Shown here: positions 23,817 to 51,499 of the stretch, piece after piece
Position numbering within the stretch: position 1 is the first letter of the stretch
Layout: every line of letters begins with the position of its first letter
Assembly (NCBI RefSeq): GCF_013315695.1
Contig: NZ_CP054353.1
Origin: Escherichia coli
GTDB lineage: Bacteria; Pseudomonadota; Gammaproteobacteria; Enterobacterales; Enterobacteriaceae
Direction: 5' to 3' (one strand)
Length of the DNA stretch: 64,000 nt
Notes under the pieces: model-generated
What the model saw: the letters and a program-made list of their open reading frames with translations, nothing else
Told to the model about the DNA's origin: nothing
The model's database searches: none
Program-made: the position numbers and the translations under genes

Positions 23817-23948
23817 ATGCCAGACAAACTCATAACGCTGGCGAAGATCCTCTGTGTAATTGTCGGCATTTCATTTTCACTAATGCTGGTTGCTCTTTTT
23901 CTTTCCATGGCCTGGATGATGTTGTCTTCGTCGGGGTTGCTGGGGTGA
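23817..23948 (+). CDS. Small hydrophobic protein, 43 aa
   Basis: RBS GGGAGG 7 nt before [46 protein letters not shown]. Confidence 0.4.
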
Positions 23949-23959
23949 ACATAAACCGA

Positions 23960-24418
23960 ATGCTTTCCGCGTTTATCGTTATTCTGCTGGTGGCCTGTGG
24001 TGCGCTGTGGATGGCAACAGACCATTACCGTGATAACGCGATTACCTACAAAGCGCAGCGCGATAACAAAGCCAGTGAACTGAAGCTGGCGAACGCAACC
24101 ATTACTGATATGCAGGTGCGCCAGCGCGATGTTGCTGCGCTCGATGCAAAATACTCGAGGGAATTAGCCGATGCGAGAGCTGAAAATGAAACTCTTCGCG
24201 CTGACGTTGCCGCTGGTCGTAAGCGCCTGCGGATCAACGCCACCTGTCCAGGCTCCGTGCGTGAAGCCCCCACCACCTCCGGCGTGGATAATGCAACCGG
24301 CCCCCAACTGGCAGACACCGTTACACGGGATTATTTCACCCTCAGAGAGCGGCTGATGACGATGCACAAGCAACTGGAAGGGGCACAGGACTATATCCGC
24401 ACTCAGTGCCTGAAATAA
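23960..24418 (+). CDS. Rz: i-spanin Rz
   Basis: [65 protein letters not shown]..., closely lambda-Rz-like. Confidence 0.85.
24171..24356 (+). CDS. Rz1: o-spanin Rz1, lipoprotein embedded in Rz in the +1 frame
   Basis: [51 protein letters not shown]; lipobox VSAC, Pro-rich. Confidence 0.8.
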
Positions 24419-24728
24419 GTTTTGTTGATGCGCCGTATCGTCGCTATATTCCCTCATTAACAGAGACCGCAGCCCGACAGGGAGACTCCTCTGCGCGAGT
24501 GTGCGGGGATAATTAAAAACGATGCTCACCGGGTTTTTACCGCGTTAATGATTCGCGGGTTTATCCCGGTGCGATGGTGGAAGAAACAGGAAGCTGTATT
24601 ACAGAAAGTGCTACTACTGTATCCCGATGCGATGTATGTAATGTGAGTCAGATAATGGCACAGGATGTGGTGATGTGGCAGTCTGGAACACAGGATATAT
24701 TGTCAGAATAAGACCCGTAGGAATAAAA

Positions 24729-25055
24729 ATGAAAAGACGCCTTTTACTACTTTTTCTGTTATCTGTCCTGGCAGTGGGATGCTCGCAGCAAAAAGCTGAT
24801 GAGCCCCGGCAATTAGTGACGGTGTATCCACGATATCCGGAATATGCTGCAGCAAATTATATCAAGGGGCTGGTTGAGGTTAAGTTCGATATTGGTGCTG
24901 ATGGGACTGTGACACGGATCGTTTTTCTCCGCTCAGAGCCTCATAATTTGTTTCGTGATGAAGTGGTGAAGGCCATGGCGAAATGGCGATTTGAAAAGAA
25001 TCGCCCCTGTCAGGGAGTGAAGAGACAATTTATCTTTACGCCGTCACGTCCCTGA
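24729..25055 (+). CDS. Lipoprotein with TonB C-terminal-like domain, 108 aa
   Basis: MKRRLLLLFLLSVLAVGCSQ (lipobox) then VTVYPRYPEYAAANYIKGLVEVKFDIGADGTVTRIVFLRSEPHNLFRDEVVKAMAKWRFE; RBS AGGA. Confidence 0.65.
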   Translation: MKRRLLLLFLLSVLAVGCSQQKADEPRQLVTVYPRYPEYAAANYIKGLVEVKFDIGADGTVTRIVFLRSEPHNLFRDEVVKAMAKWRFEKNRPCQGVKRQFIFTPSRP

Positions 25056-25177
25056 TGCTTCCAGGTAGAGAGGGGCTGGACGCAGGAGAAAAATGAAAGA
25101 GCCAGCGGTTATATTTTTGTCATGGCTGACGAGGAATGATGGAAGAAGGCGTTGTATGCCACACAACGCCTCACTGT

Positions 25178-25670
25178 TCATTTCTTCTTTTTCTCTGGTG
25201 GAACCCGATGAATAAGAGTTGCACTGGTTTCCGATGAGATGGCGATATACTCGGGCAAAGTATGCTGGCAGTTTTCCAACTGGTCAAAAATACCTGCTCT
25301 CGTCTGTTGCAATGCCTGCAGCATGCGGCGGCAATGCGCCTTGCTTTTACTAACCATCTTTCCTTCCTCTATCAGTCGCTGCGTGAACTCATCATGTAAT
25401 ACCAGGTAAATGCGGATGTTATCGGTTTTGGCTACGCAGCATAGTACAAAACGGACAGGTGCATCCCGGGACGGGGGAGGCGTCACATGTCCCTGTGATG
25501 GTTGTTCCGGGTAATGCACTGTGTGGGGCATAAAAATGTCCGATAATTTTACTTTCTACCGCAGTTAGTTGATTCGTTGGTCCTGGTAGCACATTGGGCG
25601 AGGATTTAAATGCCAGGCAACTGAAGGATGATGTTGCAAGGGAGATAGCGAGAATATTTCTGATTTTCAT
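25178..25670 (-). other. Reverse-strand coding region in two overlapping frames (25419-25670 with signal-peptide-like start MKIRNILAISLATSSFSCLA; 25178-25531); possible frameshifted gene or two overlapping genes
   Basis: Two ORFs of 84 and 117 aa overlap by 113 nt; function unknown. Confidence 0.35.
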
Positions 25671-25817
25671 TTGATGATGCCTCTGTGTGAAATGACGGTA
25701 AACGACGCACTTGTGCCGGCACATAATAGCAAGCACCATAATAGATCAGATTCGATTCTTGCTGTAAGTGATAATCATTCTCGTTTTCGGGTCCTTTCCG
25801 TCGATCCAACAGGTTAC

Positions 25818-25829
25818 GGGGCGGCGACC
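25818..25829. other. cosN cohesive-end site, lambda-type
   Basis: GGGCGGCGACCT followed by CGCGGGTTTTCGCTATTTATGAAAATTTTCCGG, matching the lambda left end as I recall it for about 45 nt. Confidence 0.8.
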
Positions 25830-25867
25830 TCGCGGGTTTTCGCTATTTATGAAAATTTTCCGGGAAC

Positions 25868-25966
25868 CATGTCCGGTTTCTCTTCAAGTTAACTATATGA
25901 AAAATAAAAAAAGAGGTCTTCTGTGAACCGGACATGCACAAAAAATAGACATGTAAGCCGGACATG
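25868..25966. repeat. Three copies of CCGGACATG (one inverted) in the cosB position, putative small-terminase binding sites
   Basis: catgtccgg 25868-25876 (inverted), ccggacatg 25928-25936 and 25958-25966, between cosN and Nu1. Confidence 0.45.
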
Positions 25967-26013
25967 ACCGGTTTTGTTGTGATTGTGAAGTGAGAGTTTT
26001 TGCGAGGTGAGGA

Positions 26014-26523
26014 GTGGCTACGCAGACTGAAGTTGCCAGGCATTTAAGTCTGACCGATCGCCAGCTTCGCAGATTGCAGAAATTGCCGGGTGCCCCGATA
26101 TCGAATAAGCGAGGGCAACTGGATCTGGATGCCTGGCGCGATTTTTACATATCGTATCTGAGAAGAAGTAAAAACGATGTGCCTGATGGCGATAGCGAAG
26201 ACGACTATGAGGAGAAATTGCTTATTGCCAGATGGGAACTGACAGCAGAACAGGCTGTTACACAGCAGTTAAAAAATGAGGTGTCAAAAGGAAAACTTAT
26301 TGACACCGGGTTCTGTATTTTTGCCCTCAGCAAGCTGGCAATGGCGTTATCCAGTACGCTTGATTCCATCCCTTTATCCATGCAGCGACAGTTTCCTGAT
26401 TTAACACCGCGCCATCTTGACCATCTGAAAACCCTTATTGCGAAGGGGGCAAATCAGTGTGCGCGGGCGGGGGATAAATTACCGGATTTACTCGATGAAT
26501 ATATCAGAGCAACAACTGAATAA
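26014..26523 (+). CDS. nu1: Terminase small subunit, Nu1-like
   Basis: GTG start; C-terminal half TGFCIFALSKLAMALSSTLDSIPLSMQRQFPDLTPRHLDHL... resembles lambda Nu1. Confidence 0.8.
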   Translation: MATQTEVARHLSLTDRQLRRLQKLPGAPISNKRGQLDLDAWRDFYISYLRRSKNDVPDGDSEDDYEEKLLIARWELTAEQAVTQQLKNEVSKGKLIDTGFCIFALSKLAMALSSTLDSIPLSMQRQFPDLTPRHLDHLKTLIAKGANQCARAGDKLPDLLDEYIRATTE

Positions 26524-28412
26524 TATGATGAGTGCTGTCACAACAGCATTACAGCCCCTGATAAGGGCATTGCCGGTGACGCCAGTTGAATGGGCTGATC
26601 AAAATTATTATCTGCCTAAAGAATCTTCATATGGTGAGGGAGAATGGAAAACGCTGCCGTTCCAGATCGCCATCATGAACAGCATGGGGAATGATCAGAT
26701 CCGGACTGTTAATCTGATTAAATCTGCCCGTGTTGGCTATACAAAGATGTTGCTGGGGGTGGTCGGGTATTTTATTGAGCATAAATCCCGAAACAGTCTG
26801 CTTTTTCAGCCCACGGATTCTGCCGCTGAAGATTTTATGAAGTCTCACGTGGAGGCGACGATTCGGGATGTGCCATGTCTGAAAGACCTTTCTCCATGGC
26901 TGGGGCGTAAACATCGTGACAATACTCTCACGCTGAAACGCTTTTCATCGGGTGTGGGCTTCTGGTGCCTGGGCGGCGCTGCCGCCAAAAACTACCGTGA
27001 AAAATCCGTGGACGTGGTCTGCTATGACGAACTTTCCTCGTTCGAACCGGATGTCGAAAAAGAGGGTTCGCCAACCCTGCTTGGGGATAAACGTATTGAG
27101 GGCTCTGTATGGCCCAAATCCATTCGCGGCTCGACGCCTAAAATCAAAGGCACCTGCCAGATCGAAAAAGCGGCCAACGAGTCGGCGCATTTCATGCGTT
27201 TTTATGTGCCCTGCCCGCACTGTGGGGAGGCGCAGTATCTGAAATTTGGCGATGAGTCCACGCCTTTTGGCCTTAAATGGGAGAAGGACAGCCCCGAAAG
27301 CGTTTTCTACCTCTGTGAACATCATGGCTGCGTGATCCATCAGTCTGAGCTTGACCAGAGCAACGGGCGGTGGATCTGTGAAAACACGGGGATGTGGACC
27401 CGCGACGGTCTGACGTTTTTCAGCGCTGCGGATAATGAAATTCCGCCGCCGCGCTCCATCACATTCCATATCTGGACGGCGTACAGTCCGTTCACCACCT
27501 GGGTACAGATTGTCTATGACTGGCTGGATGCACTGAAAGATCCCAACGGCCTGAAAACCTTTGTGAACACCACGCTGGGCGAGACCTGGGAAGAGGCCGT
27601 GGGCGAAAAACTCGATCACCAGGTGCTGATGGATAAGGTTGTGCGTTACACGGCTGCGGTGCCTTCCCGGGTGGTTTATCTGACGGCGGGCATTGACTCG
27701 CAGCGAAACCGTTTTGAGATGTATGTCTGGGGATGGGCTCCGGGAGAGGAAGCCTTTCTGGTGGATAAAATCATCATTATGGGGCGTCCCGATGAGGAAG
27801 AGACGCTGTTACGTGTGGATGTGGCGATCAACAAAAAATACCGCCATGCAGACGGAACCGAAATGACCATTTCCCGTGTCTGCTGGGACACCGGGGGGAA
27901 TTGTCTATCAGAGGTCAAAAAAACACGGTGTTTTCCGGGTGCTGCCGGTAAAAGGTGCATCTGTTTATGGCAAGCCGGTGATCACCATGCCAAAAACCCG
28001 CAATCAGCGGGGCGTGTATCTGTGCGAAGTGGGGACGGACACCGCAAAAGAAATTCTCTATGCCCGTATGAAAGCCGATCCCACGCCTGCGGATGAAGCC
28101 ACGTCGTATGCCATCCGTTTTCCTGATGATCCGGAGATTTTTTCGCAGACAGAGGCGCAGCAACTGGTGGCGGAAGAGCTTGTGGAGAAGTGGGAAAAAG
28201 GAAAGATGCGTCTGCTGTGGGATAACAAAAAGCGGCGTAACGAAGCGCTGGACTGCCTGGTGTATGCCTACGCGGCATTACGTGTGTCCGTGCAACGCTG
28301 GCAGCTTGATCTGGCTGTACTGGCAAAATCCCGGGAAGAAGAGACGACCCGGCCAACCCTTAAAGAACTGGCAGCGAAGCTGTCCGGAGGAGTGAATGGT
28401 TACAGTCGCTGA
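26495..28412 (+). pseudogene. A: Terminase large subunit gpA, interrupted by a +1 frameshift near 27893-27900
   Basis: N-terminal 466 aa (MNISEQQLNN...ISRVCWDTGG) and C-terminal 170 aa (...IVYQRSKKHGVFRVLPVKGASVYGKP...) both lambda-gpA-like but in different frames; junction at ccggggggaattg. Confidence 0.6.
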
Positions 28413-49955: not shown

Positions 49956-50606
49956 TCAATGAGACATCATCTCCTCGACCACTTCTTCGCTACTCAACTG
50001 ATAGGGATAATACGTTGGCCAGTTTTCCATTTCATTCAATAAAGATTGCTGGGAATCATTACCCATAAAAATGTGAAAATGAGATGATTTTCGTGGTGCA
50101 ATTATATGATCGCTAAATTGTATATATTTAGGGGCTTTGCTTTCAGGATCTTTACATTCGAATAAGTAACGAACGCCTTTCTTGCCTGATTTATAGGTGA
50201 GTATTTTGTATCCATCGTAATCATATTTACAGGATGTTGTTTCATTATTTCTATGGAATTCGACAATGCCGTCCTCAATGCCAATCATTTCGATATCTGT
50301 CGCATAACCTTTGCGATAATAATCTTTAATTTCAGCAAATGGTTTGGTTTTATCTGCATCCGCTTTCTTCTGAAAGACGGGATCAAGTTTGCCACTTTGC
50401 AGTAAAGGGTAAACGGATTGCCAGACTCCATCCCAGTCACTGAGCGTTCGGTTTTGTACATTGGTATCATCAAAAACACCATTAGCAGCTTTTTGTTCGA
50501 CCTCTGTTAAGGGTTTGCCGTGTGAGTGATGACCATGCGAAAAGGCAGGAGCGCTAACAATAAAGACACCTAAAGCAACAGCCAGTTTATGAAGACGAAT
50601 CGCCAA
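49956..50606 (-). CDS. zinT: Zinc/cadmium-binding periplasmic protein ZinT (YodA)
   Basis: 216 aa; signal peptide then HGHHSHG His-rich motif. Confidence 0.9.
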
Positions 50607-50863
50607 AACAATTTCCTCCAGAGTTAATGTACATGATGTGTAATGTTATATTGTAACATATGAAAAAATGCAACAACTCATTAGGAAATGAGAGCATGGT
50701 ATTCTCAGGTGTATTTAACTATCTTATTGAAATAAAATAAATTATTCTGGTGATGAAAGGTTGATGACAAACGAAACATAACTTGATGCGATCTGTGTGG
50801 GCCGGATAGGGCGCTCGCGCCGCATCCGGCCGGGATAACGCGAAGTTTGTCGGCAATATGAAG

Positions 50864-51499
50864 TTATAGAGATAATTTGTTGTGGGCCTGCTTGCGTAAC
50901 CGGTTGAAAAGGGAAAGCAACTTCTTATACCGTAAGGCTAAAAGCAGTACAGCCAGCCCAGCGTAGATGAGTGGCTGCGGTGAAATAATCTTCACTGACC
51001 ACAGATAATGTATTGGGGCCAGGATCGCGACAAGATAGACGAAGTTATGCAACTGTTGCCAGTGTTTGCCGAGTTTTCGCTGCATCGACTGGGTTGAAGT
51101 GAACGCTAAAGCAAGCAAAATAACCCAGCTGATAATTCCTAACGTTAAATAAGGCCGGGTAATTAACTCCTTACCTAATAACGCCAGATTATTCACGCCC
51201 AACTCCAGCAATGCGTAACTGGTTAAATGCAGTGTCGCCCAGGCAAAGCACCATAAGCCTAACAGGCGGCGAGTGCGTATCAATAACGGCTGTTTTGCGT
51301 AGCGTGCCAGAGGTGTGATTAACAAGGCCGCAAGCAAAAATTTCAGTGCAGTGCGACCGGTAAAATGCTGAATATCTTTCACCGGATCGGCACCTAGTCC
51401 ACCGTGATTGATCGCCCAGACCAGCCAGAGAAACGGCAACAATCCGGCAAGATGCAGGCAAACTTTCAGCCATATCACCTGCTTTGCTGTCAGACGCAT
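50864..51499 (-). CDS. msrQ: MsrQ (YedZ), heme-binding membrane subunit of the MsrPQ system
   Basis: 211 aa polytopic membrane protein, [28 protein letters not shown]... Confidence 0.9.

Follow-up and report, generated by a model that had tools for sequence, protein, structure and literature searches.

In lambdoid phages, the interval between Rz and cos is a known site of morons such as lambda bor/Iss, which are oriented opposite to the late operon, encode small envelope-targeted products and occur as cassettes with differing flanks. Bor itself is a lipoprotein (PF06291), and the last reverse open reading frame (ORF) before cos in lambda encodes a 64-amino-acid (aa) DUF3950 protein (PF13132; 48109-48303, complement). 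In Enterobacteria, the Zur regulon includes the periplasmic proteins ZinT (PF09223), ZnuA (PF01297) and PliG (Gilston et al. 2014, PMC4219657). Here, we analyzed the Rz-cos interval of a phage-21-like lambdoid prophage in Escherichia coli, contained in a stretch of 64,000 nucleotides (nt) of contig NZ_CP054353.1 (assembly GCF_013315695.1; hereafter the window), where two reverse-strand ORFs, ORF A and ORF B, overlap. Taken jointly, we consider it likely that ORF A contains one real gene, termed gene A, which belongs to an exported protein family linked to metal starvation, that most of ORF B is an out-of-frame artefact, and that a fusion of the two frames is not ancestral; this reading is open to either status of B', a shorter candidate ORF within ORF B.

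The reverse-strand coding signal described in the original prediction as split across two overlapping frames is indeed present. The ORFs share 113 nt (25419-25531), with ORF B in the +1 frame of ORF A, and both this overlap and the 117-aa length of ORF B match the ORF listing. The position in the Rz-cos interval was likewise borne out, as Rz, a TonB_C lipoprotein gene, cosQ and Nu1 were found as flanks (Table 1). When read from the ATG at 25670, ORF A gives 83 aa and a stop, beginning MKIRNILAISLATSSFSCLA (MKIRN); the signal-peptide-like start proposed for it holds, and the length is one residue shorter than the 84 aa given. Because the in-frame extension up to 25739 is not common to the homologues, the start of gene A was placed at 25670.

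Several comparisons with diverged relatives carry the case for gene A. The proportions of synonymous (pS) and non-synonymous (pN) differences were 0.78 and 0.16 against locus L021, and 0.72 and 0.21 against locus L012; when these two alignments were read in the shifted frames, pN/pS rose to 1.1-1.9 (1.8-1.9 for L021) and stops appeared. Overall, frame A showed pN/pS ratios of 0.2-0.5 with saturated pS, and the other two frames showed ratios of 0.9-1.9. Across the 38 overlapped codons, the window and L021 differ synonymously at 19 and by amino-acid replacement at 7; identity over the overlap is 31/38 in frame A and 11/37 in frame B, and frame B is interrupted by stops there in both L012 and L066. 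In addition, DNA homology with the E. coli prophages L021-23 extends from cos to position 428/432, which is the gene A stop, and homology with the Salmonella island loci L012-14 extends from ~6 nt 5' of the ATG through that same stop. Length, in turn, says little: 43 stop-free runs of at least 117 codons occur in wrong frames of the 33 long window ORFs taken as genes, so ORF length alone is no coding evidence, and conservation is what sets ORF A above chance. By these criteria of conservation, gene A is read as a genuine, intact gene with its own start, ribosome-binding site and stop. The near-identical copies hold too few changes to tell the frames apart, and even gene A is not significant among them. 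An 85%-identical relative, L005, was discarded as a frame test: its many indels, which affect even the TonB_C gene and the start codon of gene A, mark it as decayed or error-rich.

Table 1 Features of the Rz-cos interval and its surroundings in the window.
Feature	Position	Strand	Description and basis
Gene A	25419-25670	-	83-aa precursor; ATG 25670-25668, stop 25421-25419
Shine-Dalgarno-like AGAGG	25680-25684	-	9 nt 5' of the gene A ATG; read from the sequence
ORF A	25419-25739	-	106 aa; residue 24 is the ATG at 25670; listing of ORFs
ORF B	25178-25531	-	117 aa; C-terminal end ...SATLIHRVPPEKKKK; listing of ORFs
ORF B, N-terminal 58 codons	25358-25531	-	Open but non-coding: 25419-25531 is the gene A +1 frame, 25358-25418 is spacer
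B'	25178-25357	-	Candidate 59-aa ORF, MVSKSKAHCRRMLQ...PPEKKKK; phrog_4843, E 3e-46
C5 homopolymer	25473-25477	-	Inside gene A, codons Ser65-Pro66-Val67
Inverted repeat, 12-bp arms	25147-25171		Between the convergent TonB_C gene and the reverse ORFs; 6 nt after the B' stop
45-aa ORF	25262-25399	+	Prokaryotic Genome Annotation Pipeline (PGAP) in AR_0017, WP_000881609; phrog_3744
40-aa ORF	25093-25215	+	CPT_21_74 of the phage 21 record
Fur-box-like array	25764-25788		Adjoins cosQ; two 15/19 matches to GATAATGATAATCATTATC that overlap each other; 94-118 nt 5' of the gene A ATG
Rz	23945-24418		
Rz1	24171-24356		
TonB_C lipoprotein moron	24729-25055	+	PF03544, E 1e-12; PGAP and the phage 21 record concur; convergent with gene A
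cosQ GGGTCCT	25789-25795	+	Alignment to the cosQ feature of OL657228, and sequence
12-nt cohesive end GGGCGGCGACCT	25819-25830	+	Linear phage 21 genome ends at 25818; alignment to OL657228
Nu1-like small terminase	26014-26523		

At the protein level, gene A is predicted to encode the signal peptide MKIRNILAISLATSSFSCLA|FKS, followed by a mature protein of ~63 aa. The signal peptide combines a basic n-region (MKIR) with a 13-residue hydrophobic core and then (C/A)-L-A|F, and four cysteines (Cys62, Cys70, Cys72 and Cys75) are all located in the last 22 residues of the mature protein. In the gene A sequence S-F-S-C-L-A|F, the position of the Cys misfits the lipobox L-[AS]-[GA]-C, and this pre-cleavage residue is replaced by Ala in members from Pantoea, Erwinia, Raoultella and Serratia. 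Because it is Ala in many members, we see no lipobox here and infer a signal peptidase I site after Ala20.

Homologues of gene A are spread widely within the Enterobacterales. An exhaustive phmmer search with a fused A+B query against 1.84 billion representatives found full-length diverged homologues for the ORF A part alone; these comprise 80-83 aa, are 41-61% identical and all keep the frame-A C-terminus C-D/N-x-SPVPGC-x-C-P-F-C-x-MLR. The full-length homologues together span 78-86 aa with 41-72% identity to gene A. A profile search gave 44 clusters, from Salmonella enterica subsp. salamae, indica and arizonae, Citrobacter koseri, Klebsiella quasipneumoniae, Buttiauxella, Pantoea and E. coli, and a scan of one genome per species yielded 21 carriers, adding Superficieibacter, Erwinia, Raoultella, Enterobacter, Rahnella and Serratia. 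In alignment A4 (32 sequences, including 31 full- or near-full-length homologues of 76-99 aa), the columns M1, S10, L11, L19, A20, F21, C62, P66, C72 and C75 are invariant, and C70, G69, F74, M77, L78 and R79 are nearly so. The family shares a signal peptide ending (C/A)-L-A|F and an invariant C-terminal motif, G-x-C-x2-(S/A)P-V-x-G-C-x-C-x-F-C-x-x-L-R, which in the full-length homologues of 78-86 aa takes the form C-x2-SPVPGC-x-C-x-FC-x-MLR. All invariant and nearly invariant columns are present in the window protein, which matches members with phmmer or profile E values of 1e-9 to 1e-39. These shared residues place gene A in an uncharacterised Enterobacterales family of ~80-aa exported Cys-motif proteins. 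No match to gene A was obtained in Pfam (E<=0.1), NCBIfam, PHROG, PADLOC or PDB profile searches; Pfam likewise gave none for B' at E<=0.1 and, at E<=1, none for the 106 aa of ORF A or the 117 aa of ORF B, and no anti-phage defence model of PADLOC was matched by gene A, B' or the TonB_C protein. That neither ORF resembles Bor, as originally stated, agrees with the lack of a PF06291 match in the Pfam scan. A literature search for peptide strings found nothing.

The genomic contexts of the homologues are consistent with a mobile element. A 72%-identical homologue occupies the same slot in three E. coli prophages whose lysis and Q modules differ, in the order Nu1, cos, gene A homologue, DUF3950, Rz. 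Since E. coli prophages with unrelated flanks carry the gene in this one cos-proximal slot, as the final reverse-strand gene ahead of cos, gene A is a mobile moron cassette. The homologue of S. salamae is located in an island together with a PPC-domain protein, Bor, an omptin, a serine protease autotransporter of Enterobacteriaceae (SPATE) and a novel E3 ligase (NEL) effector; other homologues are chromosomal or plasmid-borne. Where relatives carry bor, it is a separate ORF. In the Salmonella islands, a near-perfect palindrome, CAAATGATAAAAATTATCATTTC, was seen between the gene A homologue and a downstream bor homologue (L012 4335-4357, L066 3337-3359), and it resembles the cos-proximal lambdoid palindrome. 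A small lipoprotein-like ORF with a GTG start, MKYFALISALLLSAC..., was noticed by eye at approximately 4346-4480 of L021, between the gene A homologue and DUF3950. Translation of exactly these coordinates runs into stop codons; if real, the ORF would be another tiny envelope-protein candidate in the cos-proximal slot.

The original prediction left the choice between one frameshifted gene and two overlapping morons; ORF A as a moron survived our analysis, and neither the frameshift nor a true overlap did. An ancestral gene of ~165 aa, broken by a +1 frameshift through an extra C in the C5 run so that ORF A and ORF B are pseudogene halves, would account for the continuous 163-165-aa ORF that arises when one C of this run is lost and frame A is joined to frame B. 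Proteins of this kind do occur: a search with concatenated ORF A and ORF B returned 165-aa proteins spanning both, with P0002 as the main cluster (54 members), and PGAP annotates the fused ORF in strain 3385. However, the P0002 junction (...TCDASP|SRDAP...) corresponds to C4 instead of C5, a second shift is found in an A-run at the P0002 end, and the carriers are five genomes of one assembly series shattered by frameshifts, with portal, large terminase and Nu1 each in two to four pieces. As the neighbouring phage genes are likewise fragmented, P0002 looks like a typical product of homopolymer error. The remaining fusions are singletons with varying junction points, all among near-identical copies and none in diverged relatives. 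Only 2/1222 complete RefSeq E. coli genomes have C4 (1219 differ from a C4 query as expected for C5), one of them being strain 3385, in which the portal gene is flagged as frameshifted. C5 is present in phage 21 and the other fetched copies, and the diverged homologues, including L021, lack the C-run. All of the latter end at the ORF A stop with no B-like extension, so the single longer ORF envisaged for related prophages was not found in them, and the outcome that the original prediction named as refuting a frameshift, a separate conserved gene in relatives, was obtained for ORF A. The motif PGCxCxFCxMLR, encoded past the putative shift site in frame A, would be lost upon fusion. Judged by these distributions, the 165-aa "repaired" ORF is a rare one-base variant or a sequencing error and not the ancestral state, and a single broken gene appears extremely unlikely. 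Just as improbable, in our view, is that gene A and the full ORF B truly overlap by 113 nt, or that a programmed +1 shift or a phase-variable C-run produces an A-B fusion. Both frames are open in ~1200 genomes, and CCC-N is a +1-prone sequence. Yet in the overlap of L024, a ~95%-identical relative, all substitutions silent in A change an amino acid in B, frame B carries Q13* at 25495, and no Shine-Dalgarno sequence precedes the ORF B ATG at 25531. A programmed shift is further opposed by the absence of the C-run and everything 3' of it in diverged homologues, with no stimulatory element evident, and phase variation by an alternative run length in those two of 1222 genomes only. As drawn, the 117-aa ORF B is not a gene by this evidence, its 5' half being an out-of-frame artefact.

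The 3' half of ORF B deserves separate consideration. Gene A could form a small operon with B', which begins 61 nt past the gene A stop, with the transcript ending at the hairpin of the inverted repeat and ORF B being B' plus a fortuitously open upstream extension; we see this arrangement as possible, although on balance we lean against it. In its favor, GAGGA (25369-25365) is located 7 nt before the B' ATG, and no hairpin separates gene A from B' while a strong one follows the B' stop (minus strand -18.8 kcal/mol, z -2.6; plus strand -20.3 kcal/mol, z -2.9). This hairpin, a candidate terminator of the gene A (+B') transcript with a weak U-tract, is kept in L024 in spite of an adjacent 71-nt deletion. 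Of the six frames, that of B' has the best synonymous count, with 6/13 unique substitutions synonymous (expected fraction 0.21, uncorrected p 0.04), 7 non-synonymous and none nonsense; L024 alone contributes five synonymous changes, including a double-synonymous TTG>CTA, and gene callers recovered B' as phrog_4843. On the other hand, correction for six frames removes the significance, substitutions are no sparser in B' than on either side of it, searches of 1.8 billion representatives and of IMG/VR gave near-identical copies and no other homologue, and B' accompanies gene A in no other context seen. Two loci from independent sources, L003 and L059, share a frameshifting 1-nt insertion at 25342 (codon 5) and three replacements in B', and the single-sequence AlphaFold model is one long helix only. 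The codon-usage log-odds of B' (+0.06) lies between the coding and wrong-frame distributions. We would therefore sooner doubt than accept B' as a real gene. A helix-turn-helix suspected from the B' segment LPEYIAISSETSATLIHRV was unsupported by the single-helix model, and B' as a diverged DUF3950 was dropped, since BLASTP against the DUF3950 protein of L021 gave no alignment. A last alternative, which we rate as very improbable, takes the small plus-strand ORFs as the real genes, read by the late transcript, and the reverse ORFs as their shadows. They do lie on the strand of the late transcript and are annotated in RefSeq and OL657228, but the 45-aa ORF has two nonsense changes (C12*, Q6*) and mostly replacements in L024 and a stop that differs by lineage (45 vs 60 aa), and the 40-aa ORF has lost its start in L024 to the deletion of 25065-25135 and carries E37* in L003. 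Moreover, both lie outside gene A, the conservation of which does not depend on them. Both plus-strand ORFs are thus probably spurious. The same 71-nt deletion leaves the hairpin ~20 nt from the TonB_C stop in L024, and marks the segment as dispensable.

With gene A retained as the one conserved ORF of the interval, it is worth looking at how common and how annotated this region is. The 1-kb region around the ORFs shows 100% identity with E. coli AR_0017, and the right end of phage 21 (OL657228) matches it at 99.3%. A 611-bp query (25150-25760) was matched by 1230/5426 complete E. coli genomes at 95% identity or more; most of the stretch is held by 1222 of the complete genomes, with at least 99% identity in 1201. 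Carriers include Nissle 1917, ATCC 25922, the ST131 strain EC958 and the classical phage 21 (~99%). Annotation varies among four examined records, though the module is 98-100% identical: the phage 21 record calls two plus-strand ORFs in the interval, in two other genomes the PGAP choice is a reverse ORF of 48 aa or one of 95 aa in another frame, and gene A is annotated neither in the phage 21 record nor in the three RefSeq (PGAP) records examined. PHROGs holds both phrog_4843, which corresponds to the last 59 aa of ORF B, and the antisense plus-strand phrog_3744, and public collections label every one of these ORFs "hypothetical protein". The region is not addressed in the phage 21 genome announcement (PMC9119081). 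A separate peculiarity of the prophage is the large terminase ORF (26438-28096), which has an 11-bp deletion (ATCGATGGCGA) at ~27899 relative to AR_0017 and is cut to 552 aa with an out-of-frame tail, compared with 642 aa in AR_0017; this deletion probably renders the prophage packaging-defective.

A possible function of the family is suggested by the surroundings of its chromosomal members. We scanned 300 nt upstream of the homologues at 26 loci with the gamma-proteobacterial Zur-box consensus (GAAATGTTATAWTATAACATTTC-like palindrome), which is the basis of all scores over 23 positions. As a positive control, the zinT operator in the window (50640-50662) was recovered as a Zur box of 19/23. 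Zur-like palindromes of 16-18/23 were found upstream of 12/26 homologue loci, at -40 to -120 in ten of them and at -180 and -273 in L019 and L063, respectively. They belong to Buttiauxella (2), Citrobacter sp., Superficieibacter (2), Pantoea (2), Erwinia, Raoultella/Enterobacter (3) and the metagenomic locus L019, several being the same or closely related species, and in most loci the box is the only such match in ~6 kb. Neighbours of the homologues comprise ZnuA-type binding proteins and ATP-binding cassette (ABC) transporters, a CobW/COG0523 GTPase with a Fur-family regulator, HemB/ALAD with an amidohydrolase, and pairs of an extracytoplasmic function (ECF) sigma factor and FecR. Because of these boxes and zinc-related neighbours, the ancestral role of the family most likely is in the periplasmic response to zinc (metal) starvation.

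Two further observations concern these surroundings. In Pantoea coffeiphila (L072), the gene A homologue is directly followed downstream by a gene (3303-4586, minus strand) for an exported protein of 427 aa that has a His-rich tail at its C-terminus and matches nothing in Pfam, and then by a ZnuA-family gene (4617-5558, minus strand) with its own 19/23 Zur box at 5620-5642. Erwinia locus L074 shows the same layout, which looks like a zinc metallochaperone and binding-protein pair. In the window, the host zinT (49956-50606, minus strand; PF09223, 216 aa) with the Zur box directly upstream is located on the host chromosome right of the prophage, and the next ORF (50864-51499, minus strand) encodes a Ferric_reduct-domain protein.

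In the prophage itself, the element closest to a regulatory site of gene A is the Fur-box-like array beside cosQ, whose two matches are the best two of five sites of at least 14/19 within the 64 kb. The same AT-rich palindrome is found beside cosQ in lambda (L065, ~2556-2574) and L021 (~3853-3871), and the reverse gene behind it differs between lambdoid phages, with a different gene following in L021. Given this conservation in both phages, the array is perhaps a packaging element and not an operator; it may belong to the signal for packaging termination or act as a Fur operator from which morons are transcribed leftwards. An extended -10-like TGcTATTAT (25731-25723), spotted by eye, was dropped since it is not conserved in L021, and an Rfam scan of 24000-26600 at E<=1 returned no RNA family. 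Altogether, in a plausible course of events, leftward transcription starting near cos and not tied to the late operon would cover gene A, and Sec would export a precursor that signal peptidase I cleaves after Ala20. The released ~63-aa periplasmic protein might then form two disulfides or a metal site with its four C-terminal cysteines, and, with the Fur-box-like array as operator, the lysogen could gain an extra metal-starvation factor.

Several points weigh against this reading. The codon usage of gene A looks "non-coding", with a mean log-odds of -0.19 like that of a wrong frame, although the measure is uninformative for the gene A and B' morons. The promoter and terminator scan gave nothing above shuffle expectation, and the only promoter-like site close to the gene overlaps its ATG; expression in the lysogen is a prediction. 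The Fur-like element is kept beside cosQ in lambda, which is without gene A. The AlphaFold model of gene A, built from 32 sequences, reaches a predicted local distance difference test (pLDDT) score of 53, with no confident fold. With respect to zinc, the phage copies lack a Zur-like box (13-14/23; 13/23 at best in the window copy), some of the boxes (L075-77, L019) are in intergenic regions that also serve divergent neighbours, and no strong box was found for the Salmonella, Rahnella and most Serratia homologues. Furthermore, periplasmic cysteines more often form disulfides than serve as zinc ligands. A bolder version would see in gene A an unrecognised family of periplasmic Cys-cluster metal binders in the Zur response of many Enterobacterales, captured by lambdoid phages and rewired behind the Fur-like element at cos; roughly one E. 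coli strain in five would thereby gain a prophage-encoded factor for metal acquisition or protection, expressed under nutritional immunity. This we regard as speculative and rather unlikely; if true, the cosQ palindrome of lambda-like phages would be a real Fur operator for leftward moron transcription.

The findings bear on annotation as well as on phage biology. The examined reference annotations miss the sole demonstrably conserved ORF of the interval and choose unconserved plus-strand ORFs instead. Real morons can be missed by codon-usage scoring, and homopolymer errors in long-read assemblies can create plausible "repaired" ORFs. Gene A, as a small exported protein, is an addition to the candidates for lysogenic conversion by lambdoid phages, and the predicted Zur boxes of its homologues are a testable lead to a new zinc-starvation-linked periplasmic family.

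Compared with the described systems, gene A shares with lambda bor/Iss and other Rz-cos morons the slot, the orientation opposite to the late operon, the small envelope-targeted product and the nature of a cassette with differing flanks. It differs from Bor in lacking sequence similarity and, as far as predicted, a lipobox, and its lysogen expression is likewise a prediction. With the DUF3950 ORF of lambda, gene A has in common an equivalent slot as the last reverse ORF before cos, behind the same Fur-box-like palindrome, and the two genes adjoin in L021-type prophages. However, DUF3950 is unrelated in sequence to gene A and B', neither of which matched PF13132 in Pfam, and lacks the signal peptide of gene A. 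The chromosomal homologues resemble ZinT, ZnuA and PliG in the Zur-like boxes of their promoters and in a signal peptide that presumably directs them to the periplasm, and they adjoin ZnuA-type genes. Their Zur control is predicted, and there is no sequence or detectable structural kinship between these proteins and gene A; known periplasmic zinc binders use His/Asp/Glu ligands, whereas the gene A family has a C-terminal four-Cys cluster. The kind of element is ordinary, a lambdoid moron for a small envelope protein, and the protein family it carries is an undescribed one.

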